From NCBI RefSeq assembly GCF_054482525.1, contig NZ_CM137006.1: a DNA stretch of 64,000 nucleotides; one strand, given 5' to 3'. Below the pieces are notes generated by a model that had not been told where the DNA came from, ran no database searches, and saw only the letters and a program-made list of their open reading frames with translations. Shown here one piece after another: positions 17,761 through 18,537 of this stretch. Both the position numbers and the translations under genes were made by a program. How positions within the stretch are numbered: position 1 is the stretch's first letter; each line of letters begins with the position of its first letter.

Positions 17761-17784
17761 GCTGTCAGTTCGTAAGTCAGAAAG

Positions 17785-17811
17785 CCGCCGACATGTTCGG
17801 CGGTTTTTTTT
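17785..17811 (+). terminator. Rho-independent terminator after nuoN (may alternatively be the outermost hairpin of the adjacent IS200-like element)
   Basis: CCGCCGA / TCGGCGG stem with 5-nt loop followed by 8 T, 25 nt after the nuoN stop. Confidence 0.6.
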
Positions 17812-18490
17812 GTGCACAGAAAACCCCCAGCTAGGCTGGGGGTTCCGGAAAGCTTTCAGCTTTAAGCCAGTTATTAAAACCCCTTTTGATTTGTTAAAAC
17901 ACCTTGCGGTCTGGCAACTGCAAGTGTCAAACAAGAAATCAAAAGGGGGTCCCAATGGGGAACGAAAAGAGCTTAGCGCACACCCGATGGAACTGTAAAT
18001 ATCACATAGTTTTTGCGCCAAAATACCGAAGACAGGTGTTCTACAGAGAGAAGCGTAGAGCAATAGGCAGTATTTTGAGAAAGCTGTGTGAGTGGAAAAG
18101 TGTACGGATTCTGGAAGCTGAATGCTGTGCAGATCATATCCATATGCTTGTGGAGATCCCGCCCAAAATGAGCGTATCCGGCTTTATGGGATATCTGAAA
18201 GGGAAAAGCAGTCTGATGCTTTACGAGCAGTTTGGTGATTTGAAATTCAAATACAGGAACAGGGAGTTCTGGTGCAGAGGGTACTACGTCGATACGGTGG
18301 GTAAGAACACGGCGAAGATACAGGATTACATAAAGCACCAGCTTGAAGAGGATAAAATGGGAGAGCAGTTATCGATTCCCTATCCGGGCAGCCCGTTTAC
18401 GGGCCGTAAGTAACGAAGTTGGATGCAAATGTCAGATCGTGTGCGCCTGTTAGGGCGCGGCTGGTAAGAGAGCCTTATAGGCGCATTTGA
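17812..18490 (+). mobile_element. IS200-like insertion sequence (IS200/IS605 family, tnpA only); boundaries approximate
   Basis: Single 152-aa Y1 (HUH) transposase ORF preceded by a CCCCCAGC/GCTGGGGG hairpin (17824..17842) as described for IS200 left ends; element size about 0.7 kb; no terminal inverted repeats expected for this family; ends not verifiable without a reference. Confidence 0.6.
17955..18413 (+). CDS. tnpA: IS200-type transposase TnpA (Y1 HUH transposase)
   Basis: MGNEKSLAHTRWNCKYHIVFAPKYRRQVF ... HIHMLVEIPPK (HuH motif) ... RGYYVDTVG (catalytic Tyr region); a Shine-Dalgarno-like AAGGGGG precedes the ATG at 17955; the ORF track's longer ORF from 17904 is probably an upstream extension. 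Confidence 0.9.
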   Translation: MGNEKSLAHTRWNCKYHIVFAPKYRRQVFYREKRRAIGSILRKLCEWKSVRILEAECCADHIHMLVEIPPKMSVSGFMGYLKGKSSLMLYEQFGDLKFKYRNREFWCRGYYVDTVGKNTAKIQDYIKHQLEEDKMGEQLSIPYPGSPFTGRK

Positions 18491-18513
18491 AAAACCTCCG
18501 GCTATGCCGGAGG
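18489..18513 (-). terminator. Putative rho-independent terminator of yfbM
   Basis: On the minus strand, CCTCCGGC-ATA-GCCGGAGG hairpin followed by TTTTT, about 25 nt after the yfbM stop. Confidence 0.5.
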
Positions 18514-18537
18514 ATATTTATTGGTGCCCTGACCCCA

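Follow-up and report, generated by a model that had tools for sequence, protein, structure and literature searches.

The 711 bp from position 17812 to position 18522 of the window (the whole stretch of 64,000 nucleotides that was analysed, from contig NZ_CM137006.1 of assembly GCF_054482525.1) are almost certainly an intact, autonomous IS200, inserted in the 66-bp spacer between nuoN and yfbM in an E. coli of the PCN033 lineage. This is a known element at a typical IS200 location and an ordinary strain-level polymorphism, which spares both neighbouring genes and the nuo terminator. Its left end abuts the last T of the U-tract of the nuoN terminator. Placement behind a hairpin and a T-rich tail was also found for related copies elsewhere; this pattern has strong support, and homing to terminators through mimicry of the right end is the proposed, unproven mechanism behind it. 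The features on which the argument depends are as follows.

16303 to 17760, plus strand: nuoN, the last gene of the nuo operon (485-aa open reading frame; DNA 98.5% identical to K-12 nuoN).
17779 to 17811, plus strand: intrinsic terminator of nuoN, chromosomal (GC-rich stem core at 17784–17791 and 17797–17803, then eight T at 17804–17811).
17812 to 18522, plus strand: complete IS200 of the IS200C type, 711 bp (ends set by empty sites and by six copies with unrelated flanks).
17822 to 17844, plus strand: left-end hairpin AACCCCCAGC-TAG-GCTGGGGGTT (fold −18.7 kcal/mol; nt 12–34 of IS200, PMC4513863).
17822 to 17945, plus strand: match to Rfam RF01405, STnc490, the IS200 5′UTR/art200 region (whole model covered at 146 bits, gathering score 56; E = 2.9e-31).
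17880 to 17948, plus strand: SD-sequestering stem-loop, which hides the ribosome-binding site (fold of 17851–17960, −37.6 kcal/mol, z = −3.9; nt 69–138, PMC4513863).
17955 to 18413, plus strand: tnpA, encoding a 152-aa Y1 HUH transposase (Pfam PF01797 Y1_Tnp, “Transposase IS200 like”, E = 3.8e-38).
18495 to 18522, plus strand: right end, consisting of the hairpin CCTCCGGC-TAT-GCCGGAGG (18495–18513) and the 9-nt tail ATATTTATT (fold −15.9 kcal/mol, z = −3.6; same end in six other copies).
18523 to 18537, no strand: 15 bp of leftover original intergenic DNA, from the insertion point to the yfbM stop codon (equal to GGTGCCCTGACCCCA of the PCN033 empty site).
18538 to 19041, minus strand: yfbM, homologue of K-12 yfbM and convergent with nuoN (DUF1877, Pfam PF08974, E = 1.5e-35).

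The intergenic region between nuoN and yfbM is 17761–18537 in full, of which IS200 itself takes up 17812–18522. nuoN ends at 17760, the next gene past the element is yfbM, and beyond yfbM lie yfbL (M28 peptidase) and then elaD. The initial annotation had described a 152-aa IS200-type transposase after the nuo operon, a hairpin upstream of the transposase gene and yfbM as the gene that follows. Each of these was borne out: the transposase by Pfam PF01797 and by structure alignments with 2EC2, 2F4F and 2A6M, the hairpin by a stem-loop at 17822–17844 that opens the full-length STnc490 match, and yfbM by its position at 18538–19041 on the minus strand.

When the window was aligned with K-12, homology stopped at 17808 and restarted at 18537. 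In PCN033, the nearest relative, the gap between nuoN and yfbM is 66 bp long and empty. Flanks of the window and of PCN033 were compared over 4317 bp on the nuoN side (0 mismatches, one gap) and over 1175 bp on the other side (1 mismatch), and both the gap and the mismatch fall where the two alignments overlap at the junction. The right flank was also 100% identical in SCU-102 and 19KM1776, as in PCN033. Subtracting the 711 bp from the window gives exactly the PCN033 spacer GGCGGTTTTTTTT/GGTGCCCTGACCCC (GGCGGTTTTTTTT/GGTGCCC at the insertion point, marked here by the slash). Three other empty sites, those of TUM10828, O157 AR-0428 and AVS0968, read GGCGG, seven to nine T and GGTGCCCTGAC (GGTGCCC after the T-run), which places the insert between the T-run and GGTGCC. 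Judged against PCN033 and these three sites, nothing was duplicated or deleted at insertion, and there is no target-site duplication.

Because the element ends in TT and the flank is T-rich, empty sites alone leave a register ambiguity of four positions. The ends were fixed with six further IS200C copies from unrelated loci in E. coli (lacZ/lacY, pqqU/mcbR, uhpT/adeD, plaP/tsuA, fdnI/yddM and carB/caiF), all of which start with GTGCACAG and finish with GGAGGATATTTATT, while the DNA outside them is unrelated. Since six copies with differing flanks share both ends, the element was taken as 17812–18522, 711 bp. A larger composite element or island was ruled out, as the flanks of the other copies diverge right outside 17812 and 18522; the possibility that the transposase gene is part of a larger element, raised in advance, does not agree with the same boundaries recurring in six copies at unrelated loci.

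The sequence from 17812 on reads GTGCACAGAAAACCCCCAGCTAGGCTGGGGGTT. Copies 100% identical over the 711 bp are present in several other E. coli strains, where they are annotated IS200C, and the name used here was taken from the PGAP annotations of these identical copies. On direct reading, the left end (GTGCACAGAAAACC...) does not recur in inverted form at the right end (...GGAGGATATTTATT), and terminal inverted repeats are thus absent. Subterminal hairpins are found at both ends (17822–17844 and 18495–18513). That on the left has the core CCCCCAGC-TAG-GCTGGGGG at 17824–17842, is extended to 17822–17844 by A-U ends and is the presumed subterminal hairpin to which TnpA binds; that on the right was terminator-like on both the plus and the minus strand in a terminator scan. 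The anatomy of the element agrees with that of published IS200 to within 1 nt (PMC4513863). Note that the Rfam STnc490 model matches the tnpA-sense strand and that STnc490/art200 is antisense to the tnpA 5′UTR in PMC4513863; the seed strand in Rfam and the real sRNA look inconsistent.

tnpA is the sole transposase open reading frame in the 711 bp, with no tnpB, and it matches the tnpA DNA of strain VCSW5 (protein WP_000526135.1) at every base. The PF01797 match spans profile positions 2–121 of 121, and the protein aligned with the solved IS200/IS605 TnpA structures 2EC2 (E = 4e-23), 2F4F and 2A6M (E = 4e-19). By sequence, the HUH motif (H61-I62-H63), the catalytic Y125 and Q129 are all intact; in the alignments with 2EC2 and 2F4F, dHIHmlv pairs with DHIHLFV and YIkhQ with YIEEQ. 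Every feature of the IS200 group of the IS200/IS605 family that can be checked in this way appears to be present in 17812–18522. The 64-kb window was also searched for a second IS200 copy, and none was found. The element carries the usual self-silencing set, consisting of a left-end terminator hairpin, an RBS-masking 5′UTR stem-loop and the art200/STnc490 region. The IS200 left-end hairpin is described as a bidirectional terminator that blocks incoming transcription and reportedly stops ∼85% of upstream transcripts (PMC5435999). Transposition of IS200 is very rare, and Salmonella IS200 TnpA, when de-repressed, is active in E. coli (PMC4513863).

The hairpin immediately upstream of the element was assigned to the chromosome. 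Positions 17779–17811 read AAAGCCGCCGA-CATGT-TCGGCGG and then eight T, with an RNA fold of −18.6 kcal/mol (z = −4.3), and the same hairpin and U-tract occur in the empty-site genomes TUM10828, O157 AR-0428, AVS0968 and PCN033 as well as in K-12. This hairpin was absent from the terminator-scan output, and its call is based on fold and conservation. The initial annotation had allowed that the hairpin at 17785–17811 might belong to the IS; this was ruled out by its retention in K-12 and in genomes without the IS, and the hairpin reads as a chromosomal insertion target that lies outside the element. Because the IS starts directly after the run of eight T, the terminator is untouched, which removes the ground for an altered 3′ end of the nuo transcript. 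At empty sites a single hairpin is available to both convergent genes, with no more than CUUUCU as its tail on the minus strand. The right-end hairpin of the IS lies 27 nt past the yfbM stop codon and, on the minus strand, has UUUUU as its tail. Read-through from nuoN would next meet the left-end hairpin of the IS, and yfbM transcripts are predicted to meet the right-end hairpin first. On the basis of these predicted 3′ ends, effects on the neighbouring genes are expected to be minimal.

To survey the site, a synthetic junction query was made from 600 bp of the nuoN end and 600 bp of the yfbM end and compared with 5426 complete E. coli genomes. nuoN and yfbM were adjacent, the query matching as one place, in 4303 of these. 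Approximately 4200 genomes have an unbroken spacer of 66–67 bp without an IS, and ∼100 of the 5426 carry IS200 at the nuoN–yfbM site. In a sample of 60 matches spread over the results, 45 had an empty-site span of 1217–1218 bp, 2 had the IS and 13 were split. The arrangement in the window is best described, from these comparisons, as a simple IS insertion in the majority-type spacer. IS200-like DNA as such was found in 3096 of the 5426 genomes, 2063 of which have a copy that spans 80% or more of the element, and there are up to 35 IS200 places per genome.

Among the 5426 genomes, the insertion is private to the window within the PCN033-like lineage. This lineage is otherwise empty at the site, PCN033 having been read directly and five other closest relatives being taken as empty because, like PCN033, they are absent from the top of the occupied-site ranking despite right flanks 99.9–100% identical to that of the window. 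The occupied sites of VCSW5, Ec-U14-1 and EECO1006 hold IS200C-type copies with 2 to 6 differences from the IS in the window, and that of NMBU_W05E18 (representative of a block of near-identical matches) holds a variant that differs at 23 of the 711 bp. All four elements have the position and orientation of the copy in the window, and the nuoN flanks of these genomes are ∼2% different from that of the window. The simplest reading of these sequences is that there were at least two, and probably three, independent insertions at this site.

It is unlikely, by comparison, that a single old insertion was passed by descent to the window and to the ∼100 occupied genomes and was then lost from PCN033-like relatives, either by precise excision or by recombination that replaced the spacer. 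Such a history would account for the identical position and orientation across the occupied genomes examined, elements of the IS200/IS605 family excise precisely (PMC5027513), and E. coli recombines often. However, nuoN of the window departs from every occupied genome examined by the ∼2% given above, yet it matches that of PCN033, which has an empty site. The ranking of the six closest right-flank relatives, of which only PCN033 was read directly, also argues against shared descent, as do the presence at the site of at least two IS200 variants 23 of 711 positions apart and a strong target preference, which makes repeat hits expected. Note that, because peel-and-paste excision is precise, a recent gain is hard to tell from excision in PCN033-like relatives.

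Retention of the copy for host benefit is less probable still. The element could act as an insulator between the convergent nuoN and yfbM, having terminator-like hairpins at both of its ends, or as an extra source of 5′tnpA and art200 RNAs, and an sRNA derived from the IS200 5′UTR does regulate Salmonella genes (PMC5435999, PMC12594629). Against this, the insertion is rare (∼100 of 5426 genomes) and private in the window's lineage, a native terminator shared by both genes is already in place and intact, and no evidence of selection was obtained.

As stated in the initial annotation, MG1655 (K-12) has yfbN, yfbO and yfbP between yfbM and nuoN. The 2561-bp K-12 segment was found in 1015 of the 5426 complete genomes (19%), with identity of ≥99% in 985, as would fit a minority island restricted to certain lineages. 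With nuoN and yfbM adjacent in 4303 genomes, in a reference comparison named beforehand as a possible refutation, yfbNOP is not the normal content of this site: the K-12-centred expectation is corrected, and yfbNOP is the exception in E. coli and not the rule. Alignment with K-12 revealed no yfbNOP remnant in 17761–18537, and from the sequences compared yfbN, yfbO and yfbP were never present in the arrangement of the window's lineage, as in ∼80% of E. coli. That the IS200 marks or caused the deletion or replacement of an ancestral yfbN-yfbO-yfbP, as had been proposed, is refuted: although the K-12 island lies at exactly this spot and replaces ∼17 bp of the empty spacer, with the same few bases forming the junction in both arrangements, the genes are confined to the near-identical minority just described, some 4200 genomes have the uninterrupted spacer and no IS, no remnant is left, and PCN033 has flanks without a real mismatch and an empty site that is recreated when the 711 bp are removed.

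Approximately 100 genomes had none of the empty site, IS200 or K-12-type yfbNOP. In ETEC6335 (NZ_CP122588.1, 1632759–1634221) another island, encoding two hypothetical proteins and an SMI1/KNR4 family protein, occupies the yfbNOP position and shares 83% identity with part of the K-12 segment. On the other side of the junction, the yfbM–yfbL DNA (18537–20374 in the window) is 92.5% identical to K-12 versus 98.5% for the adjoining nuoM–nuoN DNA, which suggests that the yfbM side has divergent alleles or has recombined. yfbK is nearly gone relative to K-12 (window 20374–20395, between yfbL at 19144–20115 and elaD at 20530–21729); what is left is ∼132 bp from the 5′ end and ∼40 bp from the 3′ end, ∼1.56 kb having been lost. 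A 135-bp hypothetical open reading frame is annotated at the yfbK position in TUM10828, NMBU_W05E18 and EECO1006, and AVS0968 keeps yfbK and is missing elaD. The yfbK–elaD stretch is a mosaic that is independent of IS200. Further along the window, GC skew is negative in just one 8-kb bin, 32001–40000 (−0.02; others +0.04 to +0.065), which coincides with a block of minus-strand open reading frames.

To examine target-site preference, one genome per species was scanned for exact matches to the left-end 23-mer. This yielded 118 distinct left flanks, 116 of them without tandem copies, from Yersinia (among them IS1541 of Y. pestis), Vibrio ruber, Brenneria, Mailhella, Oxalobacter, a Bacillota MAG and further sources. 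The six bases 5′ of the IS in these 116 flanks were T (.81), T (.96), T (.84), N, T (.98) and T (.89). The consensus of these other sites is thus TTTNTT, and the left flank in the window is TTTTTT. The 45 nt upstream of the junction had a mean fold of −18.7 kcal/mol in the 116 flanks versus −7.0 kcal/mol for T-rich controls and −8.3 kcal/mol for random sites. A first terminator-like criterion was too permissive, 39% of the T-rich controls passing it, so the MFE comparison and a strict Watson-Crick test were used. Under the latter, a GC hairpin was present in 75 of the 116 flanks versus 10.6% of control TTTNTT sites, with the end of the stem usually 6–9 nt before the junction.

Within E. coli, a hairpin and T-rich tail precede IS200C in all six of the other copies, as in the window, and at five of these six sites the upstream gene is co-oriented with tnpA. 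IS1541 is likewise said to have been located downstream of co-oriented genes by Odaert et al. in 1998. In E. coli strain 7/2 (L129, 1201–1911), an IS200C 100% identical to that of the window lies in the lacZ–lacY spacer, antisense to the lac operon, and on its own strand this copy sits behind a hairpin and GGTTATT. Y. pestis NCTC5923 has IS1541 in head-to-tail tandem, 710 bp apart (L075, 2661–3393; L077, 12605–13337; flanks L074 and L121). The right end of one tandem copy abuts the left end of the next, an arrangement that fits the use of the right end as a target. The exact 23-nt left-end hairpin was also found in MAGs of Saccharibacteria, Bacillota, Peptococcaceae, Mailhella/Desulfovibrio, Oxalobacter and Elusimicrobiaceae (L009–L069), usually ∼90–200 nt from a contig end; these matches represent either a very wide horizontal spread of this IS200 subgroup or artefacts of assembly or binning.

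The association with a hairpin and T-run is a strong pattern, and mimicry of the right end as its mechanism is uncertain. The right end of the IS is a hairpin with a 9-nt tail ending in TTTATT, and a hairpin with a T-rich target would resemble this end (hairpin and ATATTTATT). Insertion would proceed by single-strand “peel and paste” transposition, and integration of an IS200-group element 3′ of TTTNTT following a GC hairpin would select the nuoN site. GC skew of the plus strand is positive in seven of the eight bins of the window, which would put the top strand of the IS on the lagging-strand template, the direction of replication being taken from the skew. The top strands of IS608 and ISDra2 are on the lagging-strand template (PMC5027513). 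With the target on this template, terminators of genes co-oriented with replication would be preferred, recurrent targets.

We lean somewhat toward a terminator-homing IS200/IS1541, in which TnpA would pick a GC hairpin in single-stranded DNA, with TTTNTT 6–9 nt on, as a mimic of the right end, terminators on the lagging-strand template would be reusable, and the nuoN hotspot in E. coli would have been hit independently at least two or three times. Part of the terminator association could come from the T-rich motif by itself or from selection against insertions at other places. Terminator-like sequences have been reported as over-represented upstream of IS200/IS605 elements (10.1101/2025.07.22.666184, a 2025–26 preprint); because this preprint reports the same trend, the association is not entirely new. 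A literature search for an explicit statement that IS200 targets terminators gave only that preprint. Placement of the IS200 group almost always behind intrinsic terminators would explain how tens of copies can be carried with little damage to the host, and the suggested target rule of a hairpin plus a T-run is biochemically testable.

Compared with IS200 of Salmonella enterica and E. coli, the copy in the window is alike in size (707–711 bp versus 711 bp) and in its single 152-aa Y1 transposase gene. Its left-end terminator hairpin, SD-sequestering stem-loop and art200/STnc490 region lie where they do in published IS200, and it likewise has no inverted repeats and no target duplication; there is no structural difference, and only its location is particular. 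IS1541 of Yersinia pestis and Y. pseudotuberculosis has an identical left-end hairpin 23-mer and a near-identical right end and also lies directly behind a hairpin and T-run. It differs from the IS200 in the window in the first 10 nt of the left end (GTGCCCAGAA against GTGCACAGAA), in its much higher copy number and in forming the head-to-tail tandems described above for Y. pestis. IS608 (H. pylori) and ISDra2 share with the element described here an HUH/Y1 TnpA (E ∼4e-19 to 2A6M), subterminal hairpins, the lack of a duplication and insertion of the left end 3′ of a short specific target, with the top strand on the lagging-strand template as proposed here. Both of them also carry tnpB, whereas the IS200 in the window has tnpA only, and their TTAC and TTGAT targets need no hairpin nearby, whereas that of IS200 is TTTNTT after a hairpin. 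A pairing between guide and cleavage site may operate in IS200, the target of which would resemble the right end of the element itself. Group IIC (bacterial class C) introns home just downstream of the stem-loops of intrinsic terminators. This terminator niche is only touched on in PMC7923331. Group IIC introns thus share the niche that IS200 occupies here, but they are retroelements with an RNA/RT mechanism and are unrelated to it in sequence and chemistry.
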